A DNA stretch of 64,000 nt from a virus, in the IMG/VR virus record IMGVR_UViG_3300032087_005129. One strand, given 5' to 3'. This document shows positions 3,172-59,158 of the stretch, one piece after another; position 1 is the first letter of the stretch, and every line of letters begins with the position of its first letter. The notes beneath the pieces are model-generated. The model saw only the letters and a list, made by a program, of their open reading frames with translations, did not search any database and was not told the origin of the DNA. The translations under genes were made by a program, and so were the position numbers.

Positions 3172-4155
3172 ATGTCTATCTTTACTGACAAAAACTATAT
3201 CAATCGTTTGTCACCTAACTTGCAACTGTTCTCATGGAAAAAAGACGATCTAGCAAACTGTAGGTGTCCTGTCTGTGGTGACTCTAGCAAAAACAAAAGA
3301 AAAGCAAGAGGTTACTTCTATCGAAAAGCAAACAACATGTACTACAAGTGCCACAACTGCGATTTCGGTTGTTCGCTTGGCAACATGATTAAACGTCTTT
3401 CGCCTTCTCTGTTCAAAGAGTATCGTCTTGAAAACTACAGAGCGGGTGAAGTGAACAAGCCAAATGTTTCGAAGCCAGAGTTCAAGTTTGAGCCTGTGAA
3501 ACTTAGAAAGAAGATAGGGGTTCCGATACAAGACTCCCTTCTTTCAGTTTCGTTTCTTCAAGCAAGAAGAATCCCAGAGAATCTATACTCAAAGTTTCGT
3601 TTTTCTGAGTGCTTTATTGATGATGTGAAGAAGGTCAATACTGATATTTCTGTTGGCTCAGAGAGTCGTATTTTAATTCCTGTTTATGATGAAAAGAAAA
3701 ATTTGATTGGCGTTCAAGGCAGAGCGATGAATGGTGAAAAGCCAAAGTACATCACAATCAAAACAGATGGTTATCAAGATCAATTGATCTATGGCTTAGA
3801 TTCTGTAAACGATCAGAAGACGGTCTGTGTGTTTGAGGGTCCGATTGACTCTATGTTCATACCCAATTCTGTTGCTGTTCTAGGAGCGAATCTAAAGGGG
3901 GTAGTAGAGAAATTTAGTGACTGTGTGTTCTGTTTTGACAATGAACCAAGAAACAAACAAATCGTGAGTAAGATGCAAGAAGCGATTGATCTTGGCGAAA
4001 AAGTTTGTATCTGGCCAGAGAGTCTTAAGATAAAAGATATCAATGACATGATAGTGTCTGGAATGACTGTAGAAATGATTCAGAACATTATCGAGTTGAA
4101 CACATTCAGCGGCAATGCTGCAAGATTGAAATTTGTAAAGTGGAGAAAAGCATGA
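3172..4155 (+). CDS. gp61: DNA primase (T4 gp61-like)
   Basis: Zn finger NCRCPVCGDS..NK.KARGY..YKCHNC; TOPRIM motifs VFEGPIDSMF, FDNEPRN, KDINDM. Confidence 0.95.
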   Translation: MSIFTDKNYINRLSPNLQLFSWKKDDLANCRCPVCGDSSKNKRKARGYFYRKANNMYYKCHNCDFGCSLGNMIKRLSPSLFKEYRLENYRAGEVNKPNVSKPEFKFEPVKLRKKIGVPIQDSLLSVSFLQARRIPENLYSKFRFSECFIDDVKKVNTDISVGSESRILIPVYDEKKNLIGVQGRAMNGEKPKYITIKTDGYQDQLIYGLDSVNDQKTVCVFEGPIDSMFIPNSVAVLGANLKGVVEKFSDCVFCFDNEPRNKQIVSKMQEAIDLGEKVCIWPESLKIKDINDMIVSGMTVEMIQNIIELNTFSGNAARLKFVKWRKA

Positions 4156-4880
4156 ATGTATTAGACAAAGGACATGTTGAATATGTCGATCACATGGGAA
4201 GTGACTTGATGGTTGTTAACGCAGCCAGAGTTTCGTTTAGCAGTGAGAGTGAATGGGGGCTTGACTACGATGCAATCGAACGTTTAAAAAGTTCACCATA
4301 CAACAAAGATGATGTTCGAAAACTAAAAGAGAAAGATGAAAAACTAATTCGTTATCTTGCAAAGCACCAGCACTGGACTCCGTTTGCTCATCCGCAGATT
4401 ACGCTAAGAATCAAAGCCCCTGTGTCGATTCGAACACAACTTTTTAAACACAAAGTTGGCTTCACAGAAAATGAAATCAGCAGACGATATGTTTCGTATG
4501 AACCTGAGTTTTACCACCCTGAGTGGAGAAGTAAACCAACAGATGGTGCGAAACAGGGCAGTGATGATTTTGTAACTGAGGAAGCCAAAACAAATTTATA
4601 TGATGCTATTTACAGAGAGTCATGTGAAAAGGCTCTTCATGTTTATAACACATTGATCGAAAAGGGTATTGCACCTGAGCAAGCAAGATTTGTTTTGCCG
4701 CAGGGTATGTACACAGAATGGTACTGGACAGGATCACTTGCTGCGTATGCTCGTGTTGTTCGTCAAAGAGATGATTCTCACGCACAATGGGAAGTTCGTG
4801 AGTATGCAAAAGCAATCTCAAGTTCAATTGAAAATCTTTTTCCTGTATCATGGAAATACCTTACTGCCAACAATAAATAA
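4152..4880 (+). CDS. thyX: FAD-dependent thymidylate synthase
   Basis: VVNAARVSF, HWTPFAH, QLFKHK..NEISRRY, EQARFVLP, HAQWEVR motifs. Confidence 0.95.
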   Translation: MNVLDKGHVEYVDHMGSDLMVVNAARVSFSSESEWGLDYDAIERLKSSPYNKDDVRKLKEKDEKLIRYLAKHQHWTPFAHPQITLRIKAPVSIRTQLFKHKVGFTENEISRRYVSYEPEFYHPEWRSKPTDGAKQGSDDFVTEEAKTNLYDAIYRESCEKALHVYNTLIEKGIAPEQARFVLPQGMYTEWYWTGSLAAYARVVRQRDDSHAQWEVREYAKAISSSIENLFPVSWKYLTANNK

Positions 4881-24307: not shown

Positions 24308-25149
24308 TGAGTCAACCATTTCCCGATACTCTTGATGTTTTTGCAGACGGCTTTACGAAAAGTCAAGTTGACATCATAGATGCAGTCTCGCAGGGAAGAG
24401 GCATACAAGATCCTACAGCAACAGCAAGAGTAGACTGTGTATCTTCTTTGAGTAGAGTGAGAAGTCAAATAAATGGTGTTCTGAGTCAATTTACTGTTGG
24501 GTCTGGTATCGGTGAAATTTCAACATCAACAGTTATCTTAAACGACATATCTTACAACGGGCTGTCTGCCATATCACACAACATATCAGCCTTGATTTCA
24601 AACATCGACACCTACAGAGAACACAGCGAAAGAATATCTGGACTAACTGGTGTTCCAGATGGCTCAACACTGCCAGATTTTTCATCTTTGGTGGGATTAG
24701 CAACATCATATAATTTGACTAAAGCATCTATTGATAAGGCAAAAGGTAGACCTGTCGTTGATAATTTTAGTTTAGTATTTAACAGCATAGTTGGTGACGC
24801 ACAGAATCGTTTTGCTTTGGTAAAAAACGAAAGCGATAACGCTTTCAATAACATCAAAGAAAAAGGTCGTTTCTTTTCTAATTCATACAACAGTTTAATT
24901 ATAGACTCTAGCACAAAATTCAAAGGTATTTCTGCTGGTGTTGACAGTTTTGCTGCACAAGACATGAACAACTTTAATACCATCGTTGATTTTCTAAATA
25001 AGGTATCAAAAGGCACCGTCATTGCCGGTCTTGCTGGTCAAGAAAATACACACACAAGATTTCTAGTCGATAACTTTGTTGGTGGTCCAGAGTTAAAAGA
25101 ATTTCTTCGTAAAGCGGATGAAGAAAGCAATCAAAGGGTTCTGTTTTAA
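24307..25149 (+). CDS. Hypothetical (probably virion) protein
   Basis: Translationally coupled (TAATG) to PAAR and to the fibre gene. Confidence 0.6.
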
Positions 25150-27296
25150 TGAAAGTTCGTGTCACATCATCATCTTCAAGCAACTCTGTTAAAGTTTCTG
25201 GACAAGATACTGTAAATGTTGTAGGTTCAAGAGAGGGCCCTCAAGGTGCTTCTGGTGCAGTAGGCACAACAGGCACAACAGGCACAACAGGAGCAACTGG
25301 TACTACAGGCACTACTGGTACAACTGGGGCAACTGGCACTACAGGTGTTACTGGTACAACTGGGGCAACTGGCACAACAGGTGTTACTGGTACAACTGGA
25401 ACTACAGGTGCAACAGGTAACACAGGGCCGCAAGGCACAACTGGCACAACGGGTACGACTGGAACCACAGGTAACACAGGGCCACAGGGTGTCACAGGTA
25501 CAACTGGTACTACAGGCACAACTGGAACCACAGGTACAACCGGTACTACAGGCAACACAGGTCCACAGGGTGTCACAGGTACAACTGGTACTACAGGCAC
25601 AACTGGAACCACAGGTACTACTGGCACTACAGGCACAACAGGTAACACTGGACCACAAGGTGTTACTGGTACGACAGGTACAACTGGCACTACAGGTAAC
25701 ACTGGACCACAAGGTGTTACTGGCACTACAGGTACCACAGGCACAACTGGTACCACAGGCACAACTGGTACCACAGGCACAACTGGTACGACAGGTACGA
25801 CAGGTGCGACAGGTGCGACAGGTTTCTTAGGATTAAGTGCTGGTCTTAGAATAGATGGTGTTACACTTTCAATCGATGAGACAACACCTAACGTAGCATT
25901 CAATAGCATAGTCACAGGAGAAGGTGCTACATTTGGTGGTCGTGTAATCATTACAGGTAGTGGGTTCACACACGGTGACTCTTTTACATTGCCAGGAACA
26001 GGAAACTTTGAGGTTCACGGAACAGCGGGTCCTCAGTTTATTGTTTCAAGTGATGATTTTACAACACTTCTTGCCAGAGGCGAAGAGTCGGCATCGACCG
26101 TTTTGTTTACACCGACACGAGCCCAAAATGGCAGTATGTTGGTGCTACAAAATGGCAGACTTGTATTTACTAACAACACATCTGCTGGGCAACTTGCAGC
26201 AGATGGATCAAGTTTAGATCCTCTACAGCGTGTTAACAACCCAAGAGGTTTTGATACTGACGGTGTGTTTAAATCAAACAATGCCACGGGTGGTATTCAG
26301 TTTGCTGATGGATCAGGTTTATCATCTGCAAATAACATCACAGGTGGTTTAACTGCGTTTGGTCAAGTAAACTTTCCACAGACTCTTATTGTGACTGGTG
26401 AATCTACGTTCAACGGCAATGTTAATGTAACAGGACCTCTTACTGCTGGTGGTGGTCTTTTTGTTACAGGTGGTGCAAAGATATTCAAAGATATAGAACT
26501 TACTGGTGTATTAGATCTTAAATCGAGCCCAGGAATTATAAAGCAAGGAGGTAATGATCCCGGTATTAAAATTTCTGGTAGTCTTGGAGCAGACATCACT
26601 TTAGGAGACACTGAAGAAGGTGGAAACGCAACACTACTAACCGTTGATGAAACAAACGGCTTCATAAAACTTGCAGCGGGGGCCGTTACGATTTCATCAC
26701 AAATGCAACGAGAAGGTGATAGTGACACAAAAGTGCAATTTAACAATGACAATCTTGTTTTATTCGCTGGTGGCAGAGAGGGTATCGATCTTACCTCAAC
26801 AGAGACACAATTTAACAACGGCATTACAGTCACGGGCGATGCTCAGTTTAATGGTGGTGTTAGCGTCACTGGTAGCGGATTAACACTAGGTGCTTTAACA
26901 GAACTTGTTTTTGGTGATGGTACAACACAAGACACAGCACATCGAGGCGAGAACACAGCAACATTTAGTATTCGTGCTTCAAGTGCGATTTCTACAGGTA
27001 GTAAAACAGATACCTTGTTCAGAGTTCCTTACAACGCCACATTCAAACAATTACAAATTAGATCTGGTGCGACAGGTGGATTTACAGGATCATTTACGAT
27101 TGCTGGATCAGATTTCGGTGCAGTCACAACAAACTCGATTCATGGTGCAACTTTAGGAACATTAGGATTCACCGCGAGTTCTACCTCGTTTGACTTCGCC
27201 TCTGCCACATCAGGAGATTTCTTATTCTTTAATGTAGGTTCAAACGATGCAGGAGCAACAACAGTTCAAGCCTTTGTGACATTTGAAAGGAGATAA
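25149..27296 (+). CDS. Collagen-like tail fibre or whisker protein
   Basis: 65 contiguous G-X-Y triplets followed by Gly/Thr-rich beta-type repeats. Confidence 0.8.
25236..25820 (+). repeat. Collagen-like (G-x-T)n coding repeat
   Basis: 9-nt periodicity; GNT-GPQ unit occurs 5 times; exact DNA duplications at 25482/25563 (81 nt apart) and 25638/25692 (54 nt apart). Confidence 0.92.
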
Positions 27297-47663: not shown

Positions 47664-49409
47664 ATGAGTAATATGTTTTCAACTCAGGCTTTTGAAGTTG
47701 ATGCGTTAGGTATTCCTAATGTTTACTTTATCTGTGGTAATAGGCAAAACGCCACGCCGGTCGGCGGAAACGAACAAATTCCAATTTCTGGTGTTTTTGA
47801 TCTTTCAAACATTTATGGTCTAAAAGCAGACGGCACACCACTAGAGGGTGACGACGGTAGTTCAACTAATCCAAGTGGAGGTAATACTCTTAATCGTTTT
47901 ATTAGTGTGAAGTTTTCTGATCCTTTTTACTACAACGGTGGTGTTTTTGGTTCTGGTGGTTACACAGGTGGGTCTGTAGGCCTTCGTAAAACAAATGGTC
48001 AAGCCGTTCTTGATCCTAGTTTAGGTAGCGGAATTAGTCCTGGTGATGTTTCAAGTCCAACTGCAATAATTGGAAGCAATGTAATGGGTCTTAATTGTTG
48101 TCCTTGCGGTTTTGAATTTCTAAGTCGTAGAGCATGGGTGTCTGTAGGTGATCTTTTAGAAGACAGATCTTTCATACAAAATGGAACATTTTTTACATGG
48201 GCTATTACCACTGAAGATAATGCTCTTGGTCCTGCACATCAAAGTCCCTTTCAAGGTAATGCAAATGATGATAACGTAATGGCACACGGCGAAGCATATG
48301 ATGTTTGTAGAATGGAGCCTTACTCTAGTCGTTTCAGAGAAGTAAGCGGAGATAATTCTCAGATAAATGATCCAGTTGGTTTTATAACATTGACTAGAGG
48401 GCTTTCTGGTGATACAAATAATCTGACTAACACAGAGTTTTTTCTCGAAGTTAACCTTCTTCGATTTGCAGCCGCAACTGCCTCAACAACTACAGAATTC
48501 ATTCCTCCTGAAAGAAATGTTCCTGAAGACTACACAACAGCGAAACAACTGAAACAAACTACAATTGGTGTAACAGTTGCTCCATACATAAACAGCGCCC
48601 AAGGACTTGCAAACCACTTGAATGGTCTTGACTTAGATGGTAATCCAATTCCAGATTTTGCTACTATTCAAACAGGTCTTAATAATGAGGGCAATATTTT
48701 CTTTGGTGGATTCGAAGGTTCGGCCTGTGTTGATAGATCGGGAAATGTTTTTCTTGGTTGGACAACAAGCGGAAAACTAATAAAACTTGTAACCAATCAA
48801 GACACTACAGCAGAAGCGGGAGACACAGACGAGTTTACATCAGGAACTTTTTCTGTTATTAAACACAGTAAGTTGGTTCCTGGTAATGGTGGTTACAACG
48901 CAGACGGAACCGAAAAAACAGATAGAAATGGATTTCCTGTTGATCCCGACAACAATATTATTAAGCCCGTATGTCCAAGTGCCATGATTTGCGATACAAC
49001 AAACGCCTTTGGTGTCAAAGGCACAGACTCAGATGGTAATTCTTACTCACTTGATGATCGTGTTTTATTTGCATTTCTTATGGACGCCGAAAACAGTATT
49101 GTAGATCCTGGTGGGGTAGGTAGAATACCAGGTGCCACAGACCAAGATACACGAAGAGGGTTATACATAATTATACTTAACGAAGATAAGACAAAGGTTG
49201 CTTTTGATCCAAACAATGAGGAATTTGATTATCGGGCAATATACTTTTATCCTGCTAGAGAGTTTTTTAATGATGGATTTGGTGAAACAGTTTGTTTTCC
49301 TACATTCTTGAATCTTGGTGCGATAAATGGATCCACCGAAGCAAATAGAATGAAAAATAGAGTAAGAACGTGCGGCGCCTCAATGAGGCCTTTACTTAGG
49401 GAAGAATAA
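47664..49409 (+). CDS. Hypothetical protein (probably virion or fibre associated)
   Basis: 581 aa Gly/Asp/Asn-rich ORF inside the fibre operon. Confidence 0.6.
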   Translation: MSNMFSTQAFEVDALGIPNVYFICGNRQNATPVGGNEQIPISGVFDLSNIYGLKADGTPLEGDDGSSTNPSGGNTLNRFISVKFSDPFYYNGGVFGSGGYTGGSVGLRKTNGQAVLDPSLGSGISPGDVSSPTAIIGSNVMGLNCCPCGFEFLSRRAWVSVGDLLEDRSFIQNGTFFTWAITTEDNALGPAHQSPFQGNANDDNVMAHGEAYDVCRMEPYSSRFREVSGDNSQINDPVGFITLTRGLSGDTNNLTNTEFFLEVNLLRFAAATASTTTEFIPPERNVPEDYTTAKQLKQTTIGVTVAPYINSAQGLANHLNGLDLDGNPIPDFATIQTGLNNEGNIFFGGFEGSACVDRSGNVFLGWTTSGKLIKLVTNQDTTAEAGDTDEFTSGTFSVIKHSKLVPGNGGYNADGTEKTDRNGFPVDPDNNIIKPVCPSAMICDTTNAFGVKGTDSDGNSYSLDDRVLFAFLMDAENSIVDPGGVGRIPGATDQDTRRGLYIIILNEDKTKVAFDPNNEEFDYRAIYFYPAREFFNDGFGETVCFPTFLNLGAINGSTEANRMKNRVRTCGASMRPLLREE

Positions 49410-49744
49410 TGGCAAGTAAATTAAATTTAAACATAGAACAAGGGGCTACATTTTCAATTGGTCTAGAACTAACAGATGATACCGGTGTTACATTTGATCT
49501 CGATGGTTACACTGGCAGATCTCAGATGAGAAGAAGTCACTCATCTTCAACTGCGATTGACTTAGACGTTACAATTACAGACACGACTGGTGGTAATCTG
49601 ACTCTATCAAAAACTGCTGCTACGACCGCAAGCATAACTGCTGGTAGATATGTTTATGATCTTGAAGTTTTCAATGCATCTGGTGTTGTTAAGAGAATTG
49701 TTGAGGGAGTTGCTACAGTTTTGCCAGAAGTTACAAAATCTTGA
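49409..49744 (+). CDS. Small virion structural protein (Ig-like, T4-like conserved)
   Basis: NL.I.QG.TF, DL.GYT..SQMR, T..I.AGRYVYDL, RI.EG...V.PEVT. Confidence 0.75.
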   Translation: MASKLNLNIEQGATFSIGLELTDDTGVTFDLDGYTGRSQMRRSHSSSTAIDLDVTITDTTGGNLTLSKTAATTASITAGRYVYDLEVFNASGVVKRIVEGVATVLPEVTKS

Positions 49745-49770
49745 GATAAATACCTAAGACTATTTGTTAT

Positions 49771-50442
49771 GTGAGGATTTTTCTTTTGAATATTTGTAAT
49801 TTAATAACCGGTGCGACTCGACCCGACGCAGAGCGAGTTTTTCAAAACATTAAAACAACCATCGAAGCACTCTCAGAACATGACTGCGAGCATTATGCTC
49901 TGACATACAAAACTGATGAGTCTCTAAAACTACAAGAAAAAATTAAAAACGAAAACTTGAATGTTAACCTTTTCCTGATTGATCCGATTGAAGAGGTCAT
50001 CGGCGGTTACAATGGTAACAATTATAGAATGGTGAGATGCATAGAACTTCTTGCAGAAAAAGTAGAAAACTTATTATCGTTTGATTGTGTTCTTCGTCAC
50101 AGAATAGATTGTGAGTTGTTGAGCATAGAGGTACCTGAGGTCATAAAAGAAAATACTTACTATGCTCCTTGGATGCCATGGAATTTACCTTTTGATAATA
50201 TTGGTCTGATGACACCAGAAGTGTTCAAAAAAGTTTTTCATACAGAGGGGAAGTCATTTGAAGAACCAACACCACACCATACAATAAATCAATCAATCGT
50301 AACGCAAGGCCTTCAAACAGAACCATTTAATTTTAAAAAGAGACTTTATCAAAGTAGCGATCCAGAGTTTATGGGTGTGCCACAATGGTCAAAAGAAAAC
50401 AGAACTTTTCATCATCAAGATGAGTGGGTGACTATTCATTGA
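49771..50442 (+). CDS. Hypothetical protein, possible glycan-biosynthesis enzyme
   Basis: First gene of the sugar cassette, after late-promoter-like GATAAATA (49745-49752); FD.V.R.R.D motif resembles uncharacterised GT-like proteins. Confidence 0.5.
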   Translation: MRIFLLNICNLITGATRPDAERVFQNIKTTIEALSEHDCEHYALTYKTDESLKLQEKIKNENLNVNLFLIDPIEEVIGGYNGNNYRMVRCIELLAEKVENLLSFDCVLRHRIDCELLSIEVPEVIKENTYYAPWMPWNLPFDNIGLMTPEVFKKVFHTEGKSFEEPTPHHTINQSIVTQGLQTEPFNFKKRLYQSSDPEFMGVPQWSKENRTFHHQDEWVTIH

Positions 50443-51803
50443 ATGAGTTAATCACCATCTCTGGTAGTTCGGGTGTTGGCAAGACAACTTTATCTGAACT
50501 CATACGTTTTGTTTTGAAAGACAAAAACGTAACTGTGGTGAACGGTGATGACTCACATAAATGGGAAAGACAAGATCCTAATTGGAACGTTTATACCCAC
50601 TTAAATCCAAAAGCAAACAACTTGACTGATGAAGTAAAAAGTATTTCTACTCTTATTCAAAATAAATCAATACAGAGAAAAAAATACAATCACGATACAG
50701 GTAAGTTTGATGAGCCAGTAGAGATATTGCCAAGTAAGTATATTGTTTATGAAGGTCTTCATTCTTTGCATGGTGAGATGTCTGAAATTTCTGATCTTAG
50801 AATATTTGTTGAAACAGAAAACAATCTAAAGAAGCAGTGGAAACTTAACAGAGATACACAAAAAAGAGGCTACACAAAAAAGCAAGTCGAAAATATCTTG
50901 CAACGAAGAGAAAAAGATGAAAAACTTTACATCGCGCCACAAAAAGAAAACGCTGATGTGATTGTTCGTTTTGAAGAAAAAAGAGATAAGACTGTTCATT
51001 TAGAGTATGAGTGTCGGAATGATGTAGGCAAAGACATCTTTGAAAAGGTAAAAGACTTTTATGATTTACATCGAAACTTTTTATTGCTGTGCAAGAAGAC
51101 CTCATTTGAGTATGATCTAGTTCAGCACGGCGGCGGAAACATATCCTACAAATTTGATGATAGTATTGTTATCACATCTTCTGGAAAAGAAATGGGTGAT
51201 GTGTCGATGCTTAGTGGCTTTACTTGTTGTGACCACAAAGGAAAAAAGATTAAAGAAACAAAAGATCGACCTTCAATGGAGTTAGGTCTTCATTTAAAAA
51301 TAGATCAACCTGTTGTTTTTCACACACATCCAATATATCTAAACACAATTTTATGCTCAGAGGAATCAAAAGATATCCTATCTGATGTTCTGATTGATTA
51401 TGATTATGAGTATATTCCATACATAACACCAGGTAAAGATTTAAAAGATTTTTTCAATCCAGAAAAAGAAAGTAAAATTTTTCTATTAGAAAATCATGGT
51501 TTGATTTGCTCTGGCAATTCTTTTGTAGAAGTTTTTAATATTTCTTTACACATCAACCAATTATGTAAAGAATGGCTAATCAAAAATTCAAAAGCGTTTA
51601 AGACTTTTGCAAATTTAAAAATGGACGAAAACAAGTTTCTTTTTCCTGATGCTGTTGTTTTGCCAGAAAAAATGAAACCAATCAATGACTACATGATTTA
51701 CATACAAAGAGATATTGGGTTGACCCCTAGATTCTTGACCGAATCTGAAATAAATAAATTATCCAGTATGAAAGAGGAAAAGTACAGGAGAAGTTTGCTA
51801 TGA
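50424..51803 (+). CDS. Phosphoribulokinase/uridine-kinase-family kinase fused to a class II aldolase/adducin domain
   Basis: P-loop GSSGVGKT, GDD.HKWER, YEGLH, RD...RG; then GGGNIS.K, ITSSG, RPSME..H, HTHP, L.NHGL. Start may be the TTG at 50439. Confidence 0.85.
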   Translation: MGDYSLNELITISGSSGVGKTTLSELIRFVLKDKNVTVVNGDDSHKWERQDPNWNVYTHLNPKANNLTDEVKSISTLIQNKSIQRKKYNHDTGKFDEPVEILPSKYIVYEGLHSLHGEMSEISDLRIFVETENNLKKQWKLNRDTQKRGYTKKQVENILQRREKDEKLYIAPQKENADVIVRFEEKRDKTVHLEYECRNDVGKDIFEKVKDFYDLHRNFLLLCKKTSFEYDLVQHGGGNISYKFDDSIVITSSGKEMGDVSMLSGFTCCDHKGKKIKETKDRPSMELGLHLKIDQPVVFHTHPIYLNTILCSEESKDILSDVLIDYDYEYIPYITPGKDLKDFFNPEKESKIFLLENHGLICSGNSFVEVFNISLHINQLCKEWLIKNSKAFKTFANLKMDENKFLFPDAVVLPEKMKPINDYMIYIQRDIGLTPRFLTESEINKLSSMKEEKYRRSLL

Positions 51804-52633
51804 AAGTAATCATACCAATGGCTGGTAGCGGAAACAGATTTGTTCAAAAAGGTTACGCTGATCCAAAACCACTAATTAAAGTTAACGGCAAAAGAATTGT
51901 TGAATACATTTTAGATATGTTCTCTTCAGAAGATGAAGTAATTTTTATCTGCAACGAAAAGCACCTTGAAGAAACAAACATGAGAGACATCTTGAAAGAG
52001 ATAAGACCGAACTCAGAGGTTGTTTCGATGCCGATGCACAAACTTGGTCCTGTATACACTGTGCAACAAGTATATGATCGAATAGACGATGATGAAGAAG
52101 TCATAGTTTCATACTGTGATAATCCATACCTGTGGGATCGTGATGACTTTGTAAACTATGTTCGTGAGTGTGACTTAGATGGTTGTGTTCTATCACACAC
52201 AGGTTTTCATCCCCACACACTAAATCACACCAAGATGGCATTTATCAAAGAGAACAATGGTCTACTACAAGAGATTAAAGAAAAAGAGTGCTACACTAAT
52301 GATCCAATGAGCGAACATGCATCAACAGGCACTTACTACTTTAAAAAAGGTAGTTACATCAAAAAATATTTTGATATGGCAATTGCAAAGGATATCCATC
52401 ACAAAGGCGAATACTATGTGACCTTAGTTTACAATCTTTTGGTACAAGATGGTCTTCGTGTTGGTTACTATGACACACCATTTGCCACTGTTATGGGAAC
52501 ACCAGAAGAGGTAGAAAACTTTGAATCTTGGGTTAACATTTTAACCAAAGGTCAAATAAAGTGCGAAGAAGATTTGTTAAACTGTTATCGTTACTGGAAA
52601 AAATACCATGCAAGTGATCTTTGTAGACATTGA
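51800..52633 (+). CDS. Nucleotidyltransferase-fold protein (BcbE-like)
   Basis: IIPMAG.G.RF...GY..PKPLI.V.G, YCD, EK......ASTG.YYF, GEYYV, GTPEE. Confidence 0.85.
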   Translation: MKVIIPMAGSGNRFVQKGYADPKPLIKVNGKRIVEYILDMFSSEDEVIFICNEKHLEETNMRDILKEIRPNSEVVSMPMHKLGPVYTVQQVYDRIDDDEEVIVSYCDNPYLWDRDDFVNYVRECDLDGCVLSHTGFHPHTLNHTKMAFIKENNGLLQEIKEKECYTNDPMSEHASTGTYYFKKGSYIKKYFDMAIAKDIHHKGEYYVTLVYNLLVQDGLRVGYYDTPFATVMGTPEEVENFESWVNILTKGQIKCEEDLLNCYRYWKKYHASDLCRH

Positions 52634-52895
52634 TGAAACCATATGTGACACACCCGATAACCCAAGACGCTACGAAGAGTCAACGCCAAGACTTGAAGAG
52701 ATCGAAAAAATAAATTCTCTTTACGATCAAGGCAACAAGATAGTTTATTGGACTGCTCGTGGCAGCAGAAGCGGTATTGATTGGTATGATCTGACCAAAA
52801 AACAACTAATAGAGTGGGGTGCAAAGCACCATGACTTGCGATGTGATAAACCATACTATGATATTTTTTACGATGATAAGGCAAGAATTTTATGA
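52608..52895 (+). CDS. Small HAD phosphatase (capsule-biosynthesis BcbF-like)
   Basis: VDIDETIC, I.YWTARG, KP.YD.F.DDKA. Confidence 0.82.
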   Translation: MQVIFVDIDETICDTPDNPRRYEESTPRLEEIEKINSLYDQGNKIVYWTARGSRSGIDWYDLTKKQLIEWGAKHHDLRCDKPYYDIFYDDKARIL

Positions 52896-53632
52896 CAACA
52901 AACTTAGTTACGTTAGCAGGTGAAGGTAGTAGATTTAAAATAAATGGTATCGAAACACCAAAGCCATTGATACCCATAAATGGTAAACCGATGATAGTTC
53001 AATCGGTTGAGTGTTTACCCAAAGCAGACAAACACGTTTTTGTTTGTCGTGAAGAACATTTAGAAAAGTTTGATCTAGACAAAATTCTTTCTGACAACTT
53101 CAATAACTCTGAGTTTGTTTGTGTGAAAGAAACAACAGAGGGTCAAGCATGTACCGCAGAGTTGGGTATTCGTGAGTCTTCAATACAACCAGACGATTCA
53201 ATACTAATTAGTTCTTGTGATTATGGACTAGACTGGAACGAAGAGAAATATAACTTAGTAAAAAATGAGTCTGATGTTGTGGTATGGTCAACAACAAACA
53301 ACGAGGCTTTTTCTAAGAACCCCTCCTCATATAGTTGGCTCGCTTTGAACGGAAACATGATTCTCAAGACCTATGTGAAGCAGTCAATATTCAGCGACCC
53401 ATATAACAGTCATGCCATAGTAGGCACGTTCTATTTTTCTAAGTCAAAACATTTCTTAGATTCAGTGCAAACGATTTATGAAAAAGACATTAGAAGCAAT
53501 GGTGAATATTATATTGATAATATTTTTAACACTATTGAAAACTTAAGTGTCAGATCATTTACTGTAGACAACTATCATTGTTGGGGAACACCAGAGGATT
53601 TAAAAGATTATGAAAATAAAATATTGGGATGA
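52892..53632 (+). CDS. Nucleotidyltransferase-fold protein, second copy
   Basis: LAGEGSRF...G...PKPLI.INGKPM, T.GQACT, SCD, NGEYYID, WGTPEDL. Confidence 0.85.
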   Translation: MTTNLVTLAGEGSRFKINGIETPKPLIPINGKPMIVQSVECLPKADKHVFVCREEHLEKFDLDKILSDNFNNSEFVCVKETTEGQACTAELGIRESSIQPDDSILISSCDYGLDWNEEKYNLVKNESDVVVWSTTNNEAFSKNPSSYSWLALNGNMILKTYVKQSIFSDPYNSHAIVGTFYFSKSKHFLDSVQTIYEKDIRSNGEYYIDNIFNTIENLSVRSFTVDNYHCWGTPEDLKDYENKILG

Positions 53633-54686
53633 AACAAAAAACTCCACAGTTCAATTAGTATCAACACGATCAGTAAAGATCGGAGAGTTTCGTGACTGTA
53701 GTTTTACTGGTATATGCCCGCACTATCCACAGATACTCATGCGTTCACAAAATGAATTGTTGTTGCCAACGATTGAAAGATTTATGTCTCTCGGTAGAGG
53801 AACTGTTTATGAAGAAACTATGGAGTGGGAACCACCTAGAGAAGTTTTGAAACAACACGAAGACTCTCCTGTGTTTTTCTTTTGCTACAACACTGCGAAT
53901 TATTTTCACTGGTTGTATGACACTGTTCCATATTTGTTCTCATACTTCAAACTCAAAACTGTTTTGCCAAATTTAAAACTTCTAATGAGTCCACCAGAGG
54001 GTAAAATAGATTTGTATCCTTTTGTTTATGAAACACTAAGTCTTTTAGGTATCAAAGAAACTGATATAGTTTTTGTAGATAACTACACAAAATACGACAA
54101 AGTTTTTATTGGTTCATCACTGACACACAATCGTTTGTCTTTAGAGCCACCACACCCCGCACTGTGGGATATTATAAAAAAAATAAAGTCACCAGTTAAA
54201 GACACACCAAAAAAAGTTTACGTTTCAAGAAGAACGTGGGTTAAAGATGATAATAAAAATATTGGCACAGACTACACGATACAAAGAAAATGTGTAAATG
54301 AAGACTCTGTTGTTGACCTGTTTAAGAAAAATGGTTTTGTCGAAGTGTTTGCTGAAGATCTTAGCATGAGTGAAAAAGTTTCTACATTCGCAAACGCTGA
54401 TGTTGTGGCAGGACCAATTGGTGGTGGTATGGCAAATTTATTGTTCTCGAACAAAGATACCAAAGTTATTTCTATCAACAGTCCTGAGTTTTTTCCTACG
54501 AACGAAAGACTAAAAAATGCTATGCTTCACACAGACATTACCTTTTTTGATGATACGAAGTTTATCGATAGAGTGGACGATAAAGTCACACATCAAAATG
54601 CTCTTTCTATATCTGGAGGACTAAATTCTCCTTGGGAAGTAGATATAAATAAGTTAGAAACTTTACTACAAAGTGTTCTAAAATAA
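53610..54686 (+). CDS. Glycosyltransferase family 61 (DUF563)
   Basis: NYFHWL.D, KVYVSRR, R..VNE, E.LSM.E.V..F..A..V.G..GGGM.NL.F. Confidence 0.85.
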   Translation: MKIKYWDETKNSTVQLVSTRSVKIGEFRDCSFTGICPHYPQILMRSQNELLLPTIERFMSLGRGTVYEETMEWEPPREVLKQHEDSPVFFFCYNTANYFHWLYDTVPYLFSYFKLKTVLPNLKLLMSPPEGKIDLYPFVYETLSLLGIKETDIVFVDNYTKYDKVFIGSSLTHNRLSLEPPHPALWDIIKKIKSPVKDTPKKVYVSRRTWVKDDNKNIGTDYTIQRKCVNEDSVVDLFKKNGFVEVFAEDLSMSEKVSTFANADVVAGPIGGGMANLLFSNKDTKVISINSPEFFPTNERLKNAMLHTDITFFDDTKFIDRVDDKVTHQNALSISGGLNSPWEVDINKLETLLQSVLK

Positions 54687-54703
54687 AAAACAACAGATAA
54701 ATA
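54644..54703 (+). promoter_or_regulatory. Late promoter(s): TATAAATA (54644-54651) and GATAAATA (54696-54703)
   Basis: Upstream of the GT2-TPR gene. Confidence 0.55.
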
Positions 54704-54729
54704 ATTCAGTGTTTAGAATGGAGATATAA

Positions 54730-55953
54730 ATGAGTCAAACAGCGATTGAAGAGCCTGTCAAGCCAACTGTTGAGGTTGAGCAATCTAAAAAAATAAACAA
54801 AGTTTCTCTTGTAATGATCGTCAAGAACGAAGCAAGAAAAATTGAAGGTAGCGATCTGACTGTGATCGAGCGTTGTCTTTCAAGTGTTCGTCCAGTAATT
54901 GACACGATTGTTATTTGTGACACAGGTTCTACTGATGGCACACAAGAAGTAATCAAGTCATGGGCAGAAAAGGCAGGTCTTGAAAGTCATGTAATTGATC
55001 GTGAGTGGCAAGACTTTGGTACAAACCGATCAGAGGCACTTGAGTATGCAAGAGAACTTACCGATGCAGATTACTGCTTAATGATTGACGCTGACGAAAT
55101 TCTTGTTTACGACCAAAACTTTGATCCGATTGAATGGCGAATGAGTCTCGACAAAGATCTCTATAATGTTTACGCTGAGTATGGTGGAACAAGATATCAC
55201 AGACCACAACTTACCTCAAATAAAAAGAAATTTTACTATCGAGGTGTTCTACACGAATATGTTGACTGCCACGACGAAATTGAATCGAGAGAATTCAATG
55301 TAGGTTTTATCAATACACCAATTCAAGACGGTGCGAGATCTGATGATCCTGAAAAGTATAAGAAAGACGCACAGGTTTTTGAAAAGGCTTTTGCTGATGG
55401 TAAAGTTGACGAGCAAGATCATAATCGTTATTTGTTCTATCTGGCTCAATCTTATCGAGATAGTCAACAATGGGAAAAGTGTCTTGATGCGTATGAAAAA
55501 AGAGCCGAGGCTGGTGGCTGGACTGAAGAAGTCTATTACTCATTCTTTCAAATTGCACGCATGAAAGAAATTCTACAAAAAGAAAAAGGCTTTTCAGTTG
55601 ATGATGTGATTGAGGCCTACATGCGAGCATTTCAACAAAACCCTTGGCGTGTAGAGGCTCTTTGGGCTGCTGCTCGCTATGCCCGCTTGAAGTGTCGTTT
55701 TGACCAAGCATGGTCATTTGCTAACCACGGTATTCGTCTTTCTTTCCCCGACGGTGCGTTGTTTGTTACAAAATCTGTTTATGACTTTATGATGCTTGAC
55801 GAGTATGCCATTGCTTGTTATTGGACTGGTCGCTACCGCGAATGTCGTGACTCTTGCTTGCAACTTCTTCGTGAAAACAGAATTCCAGAGGATTACAAAG
55901 AAAGAGTCAATGCAAACCTTGAACACTCTATCGAGGCCTTGAAGACGAGGTAA
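54730..55953 (+). CDS. Glycosyltransferase family 2 with C-terminal TPR repeats
   Basis: SLVMIVKNEA, ERCL.SV, DTGSTDGT, W.DFG.NR..AL, IDADE, Y.GVLHE; helical repeats FYLAQSY, R.EAL. Confidence 0.9.
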   Translation: MSQTAIEEPVKPTVEVEQSKKINKVSLVMIVKNEARKIEGSDLTVIERCLSSVRPVIDTIVICDTGSTDGTQEVIKSWAEKAGLESHVIDREWQDFGTNRSEALEYARELTDADYCLMIDADEILVYDQNFDPIEWRMSLDKDLYNVYAEYGGTRYHRPQLTSNKKKFYYRGVLHEYVDCHDEIESREFNVGFINTPIQDGARSDDPEKYKKDAQVFEKAFADGKVDEQDHNRYLFYLAQSYRDSQQWEKCLDAYEKRAEAGGWTEEVYYSFFQIARMKEILQKEKGFSVDDVIEAYMRAFQQNPWRVEALWAAARYARLKCRFDQAWSFANHGIRLSFPDGALFVTKSVYDFMMLDEYAIACYWTGRYRECRDSCLQLLRENRIPEDYKERVNANLEHSIEALKTR

Positions 55954-55956
55954 TCG

Positions 55957-55964
55957 TATAAATA
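55957..55964 (+). promoter_or_regulatory. T4-type late promoter TATAAATA
   Basis: Exact consensus before the fibre gene. Confidence 0.75.

Positions 55965-55990: not shown

Positions 55991-59154
<3,164 letters not shown>

Positions 59155-59158
<4 letters not shown>

Follow-up and report, generated by a model that had tools for sequence, protein, structure and literature searches.

A candidate fibre-glycosylation system in a marine T4-like phage: a probable protein glycosyltransferase beside collagen-like fibre genes and an inserted mobile sugar module

In several bacterial glycosyltransferases, a catalytic domain of the GT-A fold is joined to a helical domain resembling tetratricopeptide repeats (TPRs), which holds the protein or peptide substrate. 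GmaR glycosylates the flagellin of Listeria (O-GlcNAc), and SunS and ThuS glycosylate glycocin peptides. In C. difficile, SgtA, an enzyme of 358 aa with a GT-A domain and four TPRs, adds beta-O-GlcNAc in vitro to Thr of the collagen repeats of BclA3, an exosporium glycoprotein in which the acceptor Thr lies in G-x-T repeats (PMC7157674). In mycobacteriophages, phage glycosyltransferases modify the C-termini of the phages' own capsid and tail-tube proteins (Freeman et al. 2023, as cited in PMC12619734 and PMC12801897). Here we describe a locus in a 64-kb stretch of viral DNA (IMG/VR record IMGVR_UViG_3300032087_005129; the whole stretch is called the window below) that is part of an uncultured marine T4-like myophage. 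Its gene g7 encodes a GT-A plus TPR-like glycosyltransferase, GT2-TPR, next to a collagen-like fibre gene, fibB, and is preceded by six genes, g1-g6, which we call the sugar module. We favour, at a probability of about 55%, the reading that the phage glycosylates its own collagen-like fibre, with GT2-TPR priming the site and a GT61 enzyme and a GT-A-fold protein adding a module-made, probably pentose-derived sugar.

The resemblance to SgtA/BclA3 lies in the GT-A plus TPR architecture and in the pairing of enzyme gene with collagen gene, as in g7 and fibB, with SgtA compared by its published domain description. The window system differs in being viral, in its place in a late tail/neck operon, and in encoding its own putative donor pathway along with two additional transferases; SgtA adds GlcNAc. 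GmaR, SunS and ThuS share the catalytic and helical domains with g7 but are only 14-17% identical to it, act on flagellin or small bacteriocin peptides, and are neither phage-borne nor linked to collagen. As described in the papers that cite them, the mycobacteriophage enzymes exemplify the general kind of activity proposed here, phage-encoded transferases acting on the phage's own structural proteins; the acceptors are capsid and tail-tube proteins there and would be a collagen-like protein here, together with a donor pathway. Phage virion glycosylation and collagen glycosylation of the SgtA/BclA3 type are both already known. The present locus stands apart by its donor cassette, which is modular, and by the existence of a natural with/without pair. 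A literature search that left most subscription journals outside its scope found no paper on phage GT2-TPR with collagen-like fibres or on the kinase-aldolase module.

The enzyme and its two candidate acceptors are encoded as follows.

54730-55953, + strand: g7, GT2-TPR, 407 aa, with a GT-A domain (aa ~25-200) and a helical TPR-like domain (aa 207-406), assigned from PF00535 and a structure model
55991..59158, + strand: fibB, 1055-aa fibre protein with a collagen-like tract, candidate acceptor (Pfam Collagen 1.9e-07; tract at residues 429-494, nt 57275-57472)
25149..27296, + strand: collagen-like fibre protein of 715 aa, another candidate acceptor, encoded 28 kb upstream (Pfam Collagen 7e-30)

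The catalytic half of g7 matches Glycos_transf_2 (PF00535; 43.6 bits, 3.8e-11, cut-off 23.3), and its DxD motif, D120-A-D122-E123 in the string 'MIDADE', is invariant in 20 homologues. Among PDB entries, the flagellin glycosyltransferase GmaR ranks first by sequence (2.9e-09), ahead of SunS and ThuS. In the AlphaFold model (predicted local distance difference test, pLDDT, 87), residues 25-200 form strands and helices and residues 207-406 form helices only. The model matches SunS/ThuS over its full length in Foldseek (5e-15, 405 of 407 columns); for wall-teichoic-acid and other GT-A enzymes, the match is confined to the catalytic half and reaches 1e-06 at best. Judged by its closest solved relatives, g7 is predicted to be a protein-type glycosyltransferase and is probably a protein O-glycosyltransferase. 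The family is large, with >6,300 homologues, many of them at 55-60% identity, and a mean column identity of 74% in a sample. It matched 526 viral stretches, and the 80 viral loci returned by a contig scan were compared (loci are numbered L below).

About 25 of these 80 loci, with GT2-TPR at 54-84% identity, share the gene order p1683 (encoding a 1683-aa protein), fibA, asm111, GT2-TPR, fibB, p175, gp13, gp14, gp15, which is the order of the window without g1-g6. The fibre-assembly-like gene asm111 lies directly 5' of GT2-TPR in L042-L061 and is the conserved left neighbour in relatives, and a fibB homologue lies directly 3' in L042-L066. GT2-TPR belongs to a conserved, syntenic fibre/neck module. 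The association with collagen-like genes extends beyond these close relatives. ORFs (open reading frames) with at least six G-x-x triplets were found in 53 of the 80 GT2-TPR loci versus one of 36 loci retrieved with the kinase-aldolase gene of the sugar module; with at least eight triplets in any frame, the counts were 54 of 80, one of 36, and one of 80 GT61 loci. The two collagen-positive module loci, L003 and L125, are exactly those that also carry GT2-TPR. The nearest collagen-like gene is the first or second gene downstream of GT2-TPR in 34 of the 50 loci where the distance was measurable. A collagen-like gene lies within two genes in 38 of 76 GT2-TPR loci, compared with an average of 15.2 and a highest count of 27 for random anchors in the same loci (2000 draws), although the loci are related and therefore not independent. 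The link between GT2-TPR and a collagen-like fibre gene is specific across many phages, and the feature conserved in the linked fibres is the collagen-like G-x-x tract.

In fibB, the tract comprises 22 G-x-x triplets. The reading made earlier from the letters of the window and its ORFs (the sequence-only reading) had counted all 22 as G-x-T, and 19 are. The 715-aa protein has 67 G-x-x triplets, mostly G-x-T, and a Thr content of 22.9%, and its homologues lie near GT2-TPR in remote loci. The two fibres flanking the cassette had been called Thr-rich; at 11.0% and 11.3% versus 7.9% for the window proteins, their enrichment is modest. fibB stands just before the gp13/gp14 homologues, at the wac (fibritin) position of the T4 gene order, and because of this placement it may be a neck whisker and not a tail fibre.

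Remote GT2-TPR loci (33-38% identity) have an assembly-like gene and collagen-like fibres on the 3' side and long + strand gene arrays on the 5' side. Among 92 proteins encoded upstream of remote GT2-TPRs, 14 are of the GDP-mannose-dehydratase/epimerase type, and sugar methyltransferases, DegT aminotransferases and FdtA-like isomerases also occur; remote GT2-TPR genes are regularly preceded by variable cassettes for nucleoside diphosphate (NDP)-sugars. Two further loci stand out in the family. One viral contig (L068:1-21581) carries five GT2-TPR paralogues of 347-980 aa within 20 kb. Tunturiibacter phage Tunturi_5 (L041, PP885688.1 28110-47153), an isolated soil phage of 309 kb, encodes a GT2-TPR homologue of 34% identity that adjoins a nucleotidyltransferase and lies five genes from an annotated 1469-aa tail fibre with 105 collagen-like triplets, and it offers a cultured system where fibre glycosylation could be tested.

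The position of the sugar module in the window is best seen against L042, a relative with 78-95% amino acid identity over nine genes in which asm111 is directly beside GT2-TPR and g1-g6 are absent. Three features define the junctions.

49409..49744, + strand: asm111, 111-aa fibre-assembly-like gene (phrog_1084, 6e-29; phrog_3304, 'L-shaped tail fiber protein assembly', 4e-21)
49745..49752, + strand: left insertion junction, GATAAATA after the asm111 stop codon, aligned with CATAAATA in L042
54696..54703, + strand: right insertion junction, a second GATAAATA followed by the same GGAGATA and ATG before g7 (L042 alignment)

In L042, the DNA runs from the asm111 stop codon through CATAAATA, about 20 nt and GGAGATA to the ATG of GT2-TPR. 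In the window, the NATAAATA motif is present at both junctions. Because GATAAATA occurs at 49745 and again at 54696 where L042 has a single CATAAATA, approximately 4.9 kb sits between two copies of a promoter-like motif. The GC content is 0.335-0.38 in the cassette versus 0.42-0.44 in the flanks. On this comparison, g1-g6 are a separately mobile sugar module, recently inserted between the late-promoter motif and the start of GT2-TPR, and the relatives L042-L066 keep GT2-TPR without any sugar module. The sequence-only reading had treated the seven genes as one cassette, a view that we abandon: g1-g6 are absent from L042 and mobile, GT2-TPR is conserved in the fibre module, and the cassette is composite, its seven genes not descending as one ancestral unit. 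The window and L042 form a natural with/without pair, differing by the sugar cassette.

The surroundings are those of a structural gene block. The gp6-like baseplate wedge protein of the window is 42% identical to its counterpart in Pelagibacter phage HTVC008M; with the counterparts in pelagiphage Mosig and in the Melnitz phages of Methylophilales, identity is 40-42%. From ~19 kb on, the + strand carries PHROG matches to gp5-, gp6-, gp7-, gp8-, gp13- and gp14-like proteins and several fibre proteins. The cassette is flanked on the 5' side by baseplate genes, a 1061-aa fibre gene and asm111, and on the 3' side by fibB and then the gp13/gp14-like neck genes. Searching the cassette DNA against 50,697 phage records gave zero matches at the near setting and just a 140-nt match at the distant setting. 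Elsewhere in the window, the thymidylate synthase is the flavin-dependent ThyX (PF02511, 1.3e-49; 4140-4880), encoded between primase-like and ribonucleotide reductase genes.

Late-type promoter motifs accompany this block. The motif TATAAATA occurs 11 times in the window, always on the + strand, versus 2.2 expected, and nine of the 11 copies lie 0-111 nt before a + strand start. Two of them bracket g7.

54644..54651, + strand: TATAAATA late-promoter motif in the 3' end of g6, 79 nt before g7 (motif scan)
55957..55964, + strand: TATAAATA late-promoter motif, 27 nt before fibB (motif scan)

Of the late-type promoters proposed by the sequence-only reading, those before g7 and fibB are exact copies, while g1 has just the one-off variant GATAAATA, 19 nt upstream, which also occurs at -27 of g7. 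GATAAATA fits the NATAAATA form reported for cyanophages. In a mononucleotide shuffle, NATAAATA showed no count enrichment (19 observed versus 18 expected per strand), and the promoter argument uses only the exact TATAAATA count, strand bias and positions. Sigma-70-like and terminator-like sites showed no excess in 44-60.5 kb. At the homologous codons near the end of GT61, two of the 42 GT61 loci compared have TATAAATA, namely the window and L125, and both have GT2-TPR downstream. The cassette appears to lie in a late-type transcription context and may be expressed late.

The six upstream genes are listed below.

49771-50442, + strand: g1, 223-aa GT-A-fold protein (structure model), probable glycosyltransferase of a small, mostly viral family
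50424-51803, + strand: g2, 459 aa, PRK/uridine-kinase-family P-loop kinase (aa 9-185) plus class II aldolase-like domain (aa 223-385), assigned by Pfam
51800-52633, + strand: g3 (NT1), 277-aa sugar-1-phosphate nucleotidyltransferase (PF12804, 39.3 bits; PF00483, 30.2 bits; phrog_3980, 1e-61)
52608-52895, + strand: g4, 95-aa minimal capless HAD phosphatase with DxDxT at residues 7-11 (PDB 9iqw, 1xpj; phrog_1238, 2e-25)
52892-53632, + strand: g5 (NT2), 246-aa second nucleotidyltransferase, paralogue of NT1 (PF12804, 27.9 bits against a cut-off of 27, marginal; phrog_3980, 9e-40)
53610-54686, + strand: g6, 358-aa GT61-family glycosyltransferase (PF04577, 68.7 bits, 7.6e-19, cut-off 27; phrog_29695, 6e-121)

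The seven + strand ORFs span 49771-55953 within the late structural block and mostly overlap, by 19, 4, 26, 4 and 23 nt in succession from g1 to g6, followed by a 43-nt gap before g7. ORFs, Pfam and PDB matches and structural flanks agree with the gene count, orientation and families given by the sequence-only reading. So does the prediction that transmembrane segments are absent: no 19-residue window in the seven proteins has a Kyte-Doolittle mean above 1.25.

For g1, no Pfam, PHROG or NCBIfam family matched. Its model (pLDDT 96) has GT-A glycosyltransferases as top Foldseek matches, the best being the A. fumigatus galactofuranosyltransferase GfsA (9e-07, TM ~0.5), and R109, R111, D113, D142 and N143 are invariant, with 29 representative homologues found. 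Local hidden Markov models of the recurrent neighbour families C4, C7, C2 and C24 gave only a weak C24 match to g1 (E 0.016 in 64 proteins), and we make no claim of kinship. g2 matches PF00485 (PRK) at 117.6 bits (8e-34) and PF00596 (Aldolase_II) at 78.5 bits (8e-22, cut-off 22.2), with the cyanobacterial PRK 9qko as the best PDB match of the kinase (8e-33). In the second domain, PSME, HTH and NHG align with PSSE, HAH and NHG of FucA, so that the catalytic Glu and the three Zn-binding His are kept, and E286, H300, H302 and H358 are invariant in 19 homologues. Used alone as a query against viral contigs, the g2 protein gave zero matches, and an alignment query was needed to retrieve loci. g3 has the GxGxR motif as GSGNR, matches PDB 4evw (7e-12), and is the best-conserved module gene, with 63-74% identity across module loci; in g5 the motif is GEGSR. 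NT1 and NT2 are fused (~450-525 aa) in S-SM2 (L039:12001-13569), Bellamy (L040:12001-13575), L022, L027 and L035, including an archaeal metagenome-assembled genome, and these fusions suggest that the separate proteins of the window act together. g6 gave no match in a PDB sequence search; by its family assignment and place in the module, it is probably the module's dedicated transferase.

In g4, HAD motifs I-IV are all present (DIDET, T49, K81, D89-D90). Its PDB matches are 9iqw, titled 'capsule biosynthesis protein' (2.5e-10), and 1xpj (0.005), and its Pfam HAD_PNKP score is below the cut-off (17.1 versus 27.6). Homologues at 36-56% identity are found in 385 phage records, which are mostly from Straboviridae and among which are Acinetobacter, Serratia and Escherichia phages as well as Shewanella phage Thanatos-1; by these records and the 1xpj match, g4 belongs to the AfhF/1xpj-like phage HAD family. 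Given the HAD motifs and the 9iqw and 1xpj matches, the PHROG/GenBank label 'phosphoheptose isomerase' for the phrog_1238 family is probably wrong.

AfhF acts in the phage route to UDP-arabinofuranose, in which ribulose 5-phosphate is converted to arabinose 5-phosphate by a SIS isomerase, to the 1,5-bisphosphate by the kinase AfhE, to the 1-phosphate by the 1xpj-like HAD AfhF, and finally to UDP-Araf (PMC13326640). The window module resembles this route, as found in RB69, DLP3 and HY126, in the proposed progression from pentose 5-phosphate through 1,5-bisphosphate and 1-phosphate to NDP-sugar and in its HAD. It differs in that the cassette has no SIS isomerase, its PRK-type kinase is fused to a class II aldolase-like domain and not to a nucleotidyltransferase, the nucleotidyltransferases number two and are encoded separately, GT61 and GT-A transferases take the place of GT-B ones, and the window contains no ThyA-type hydroxylase. 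By analogy, the donor would be made from a sugar bisphosphate derived from a pentulose 5-phosphate, by way of the 1-phosphate, as an NDP-sugar. The aldolase-like domain would act as an epimerase or isomerase, before or after the kinase. We dropped a model in which GT61 and HAD work like the phosphoribosyl pyrophosphate (PRPP)-dependent ribofuranosyltransferase and phosphatase CriT/CrpP of Haemophilus influenzae type b Bcs3, because CriT has a PRPP-transferase-like fold and not that of GT61, and because the cassette has nucleotidyltransferases.

From these assignments we infer the following order of steps. The kinase/aldolase-like fusion would convert a pentulose 5-phosphate, most likely ribulose 5-phosphate, to a sugar bisphosphate, the HAD phosphatase would strip the distal phosphate, and NT1 and NT2 would produce the NDP-sugar. 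GT2-TPR, a soluble enzyme, would O-glycosylate the collagen-like fibre in the cytoplasm, before or during assembly, much as SgtA of C. difficile does on the spore collagen BclA3. Its acceptor would be the product of the gene directly downstream, fibB, and possibly the 715-aa G-x-T collagen protein as well. GT61 and g1 would then transfer the sugar of the NDP-sugar, extending or capping the glycan begun by GT2-TPR. Self-encoded virion glycosylation primed by GT2-TPR, as the sequence-only reading had proposed, remains the reading that kinship with GmaR and SunS/ThuS, linkage to collagen-like fibres and the late gene context best support.

The sugar module occurs widely apart from this locus. Of 80 viral loci fetched with GT61, 74 carry NT2, 73 NT1, 61 the kinase/aldolase gene, 52 a gene that we call C2 and 49 the HAD gene. 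C2 (~150 aa; L125:7804-8289, L031:12535-12999) lies between HAD and NT2, including in L125, the closest cassette; it has no Pfam match, and a search of a protein atlas gave only a sub-threshold GDPD-like lead. Among the islands annotated as 'LPS / cell-wall' in cyanomyoviruses (S-SM2, Bellamy, P-SSM2, S-SCSM2R), those of S-SM2 and Bellamy share with the window the NT1-NT2 pair, as a fusion, a 370-aa GT61-like gene, an aldolase and a small HAD, with module genes 43-56% identical. These 20-kb islands differ in lying beside tRNA and pstS/phoA genes and not fibre genes, in lacking GT2-TPR and in having an unfused aldolase. Other viral glycan islands combine kinase-aldolase and NT1 with GDP-mannose dehydratase, GT4 and GT15 beside a DnaB-like helicase. 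In a SAR86 genome, the module is part of a locus for polysaccharide biosynthesis and export that also encodes a Wza-like exporter, GT2 and UDP-glucose dehydrogenase. In cellular genomes (SAR86 L036:8744-13919, L034, L035), the PRK-type kinase forms the C-terminus of a protein of ~710-830 aa, the aldolase has a gene of its own, and a HAD_2 phosphatase of larger size is encoded nearby; because kinase and aldolase are separate there, the phage fusion appears to be a rearranged form. GT61, NT1, NT2 and aldolase homologues of 38-47% identity are also encoded by contigs whose assignment to giant viruses is unconfirmed (GVMAG contigs L167-L173, L179, L184, L186, L187, L190, L197, L203 and L204). In one of them (L168:422-16727), genes alternate between the strands and encode GT47/RXYLT1-like domains, GT2, another GT61 and a fusion of HAD with aldolase; no giant-virus hallmark gene was found in the ten L168 ORFs scanned. 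Its occurrences in phage islands and SAR86 make the module a general glycan-donor unit of cellular origin and not itself a fibre system.

Two loci repeat the arrangement of the window. L125 has the order g1, kinase-aldolase, NT1, HAD, C2, NT2, GT61, GT2-TPR and three collagen-like genes, with a GT2-TPR only 35% identical to that of the window. In L003, kinase-aldolase, NT1, HAD and C2 belong to a sugar array whose last members are GT2-TPR, an assembly-like gene and a collagen gene with 57 triplets. We propose that the module is coupled to the fibre in this phage because it is inserted directly 5' of GT2-TPR in one late-type transcription context, because L125 and L003 repeat the arrangement and remote GT2-TPRs are preceded by sugar cassettes, and because the TATAAATA inside GT61 is found in the window and L125 only. 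Since the module elsewhere comes without GT2-TPR, collagen genes or a recognisable structural block, it is the insertion site and the co-occurrences in L125 and L003 that point to its target here.

Several observations weigh against fibre glycosylation by this set of enzymes. On the module side, 77 of the 80 GT61-module loci lack GT2-TPR and collagen genes and lie in large glycan islands near replication genes or in cyanophage islands, so that the module is tied to the fibre here by position; the window module also lacks C2 (window 52895/52892 junction). On the fibre side, a collagen-like neighbour within two genes is present in only seven of 17 GT2-TPR sequence groups (at 50% identity or more), and conservation does not extend to G-x-T, which some linked fibres lack altogether; G-P-Q or G-x-D/N tracts occur in some of them. 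On the donor side, g2 falls under the NCBIfam phosphoribulokinase cut-off (NF005655, 175.5 versus 236 bits); residues 9-189 alone match the first ~190 of 326 profile positions, and the full-length PRK architecture is not present. We also know of no precedent for the proposed aldolase-like step.

One alternative is that the module, with or without GT2-TPR, is an auxiliary metabolic cassette that remodels the host surface by altering the lipopolysaccharide (LPS), capsule or extracellular polysaccharide of the infected cell, for example blocking superinfection or changing recognition by grazers or phages. The module homologues in the SAR86 polysaccharide locus favour it, as do the 'capsule biosynthesis protein' title of the best PDB match of the HAD, a weak NCBIfam match of the HAD to the EcbF-BcbF capsule phosphatase, and the set of NT-NT, GT61, aldolase and HAD in the S-SM2 and Bellamy islands outside fibre genes. 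Cyanophage glycan islands of this kind have been read as cell-surface modification (PMC12801897). Nevertheless, the seven cassette genes include no initiating phosphoglycosyltransferase, flippase, polymerase or membrane protein, and their place of insertion is a presumed late transcription unit for structural genes in a T4-like phage of lytic type. The GT61-module homologues on the putative giant-virus contigs would come from viruses whose hosts have no LPS, and the linkage between GT2-TPR and collagen-like fibres would go unexplained. We consider this alternative unlikely.

Adjacent genes may also serve two unrelated functions, with GT2-TPR using a host nucleotide sugar on the fibre, as it must where relatives lack the cassette, and the module serving a different acceptor, be it another protein of the virion, a small molecule, or a glycan for storage or as a decoy; the intergenic late promoter would then merely tolerate insertions. 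T4-like genomes accumulate cargo at the boundaries of structural modules, which suits this account, as do the relatives L042-L066 with GT2-TPR alone and the many module loci (77/80) without it. We nonetheless regard it as quite improbable, given that the same adjacency recurs in L003 and with the divergent GT2-TPR of L125, that other NDP-sugar cassettes regularly precede remote GT2-TPRs, and that a TATAAATA near the 3' end of GT61 is restricted to the two loci with GT2-TPR next to it downstream.

The arabinosylated 5-hydroxycytosine of RB69 and DLP3 is the model for a third alternative, DNA hypermodification, in which GT61 and/or g1 would move an NDP-pentose to a modified base for protection against restriction. 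The phage is T4-like, kinase, HAD and nucleotidyltransferase follow one another as in the route to UDP-arabinofuranose (PMC13326640), and the HAD is homologous, at 36-46% identity, to the small HAD of the 385 phage records, which include Thanatos-1, described in its source as having pentose-modified cytosine (PMC12838424). The Straboviridae with this phosphatase family include genera reported to arabinosylate DNA (PMC13326640), and because of this homology location and timing, on which the sequence-only reading had relied, are not a sufficient argument against DNA modification. We nevertheless hold this third account to be very improbable, since the sole thymidylate-synthase-type gene in the window is ThyX (PF02511) and not a ThyA-type hydroxylase/hydroxymethylase, the cassette lacks an arabinose-5-phosphate isomerase, an AfhE-type kinase and a GT-B/GT4-type DNA arabinosyltransferase and has GT-A, GT61 and protein-type GT2-TPR transferases instead, it stands behind late-type motifs among fibre genes, and L042, for all its closeness, does without it.

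Returning to glycosylation of the collagen-like fibre, a bolder extension can be offered tentatively, as possible but doubtful. A fibre-priming GT2-TPR behind a late promoter might be a landing pad for interchangeable sugar cassettes and so allow plug-in diversification of the glycan. The cassette in the window might make a previously undescribed NDP-pentofuranose, or NDP-ketopentose, from ribulose 5-phosphate through the PRK-type kinase and a class II aldolase-like isomerase/epimerase. Swaps of such cassettes among marine T4-like phages, cyanophages and giant viruses might re-coat collagen-like fibres with different glycans and so alter adsorption, stability or recognition. Together, kinase-aldolase, HAD and nucleotidyltransferases make the module a candidate for a nucleotide-sugar pathway for which we found no describing paper; it occurs in phages, in SAR86-type bacteria and on contigs assigned to giant viruses by binning. 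All parts of the system are soluble cytoplasmic enzymes, so that it could be rebuilt in E. coli without phage culture. To our knowledge, phage-encoded virion glycosylation has been shown only in mycobacteriophages. If fibre glycosylation by GT2-TPR is true, virion glycosylation would be a common trait of large phages, aquatic T4-like ones among them, given the size of the family and its many viral occurrences, and it would have a defined class of acceptors, the collagen-like fibres, with a modular supply of donors.

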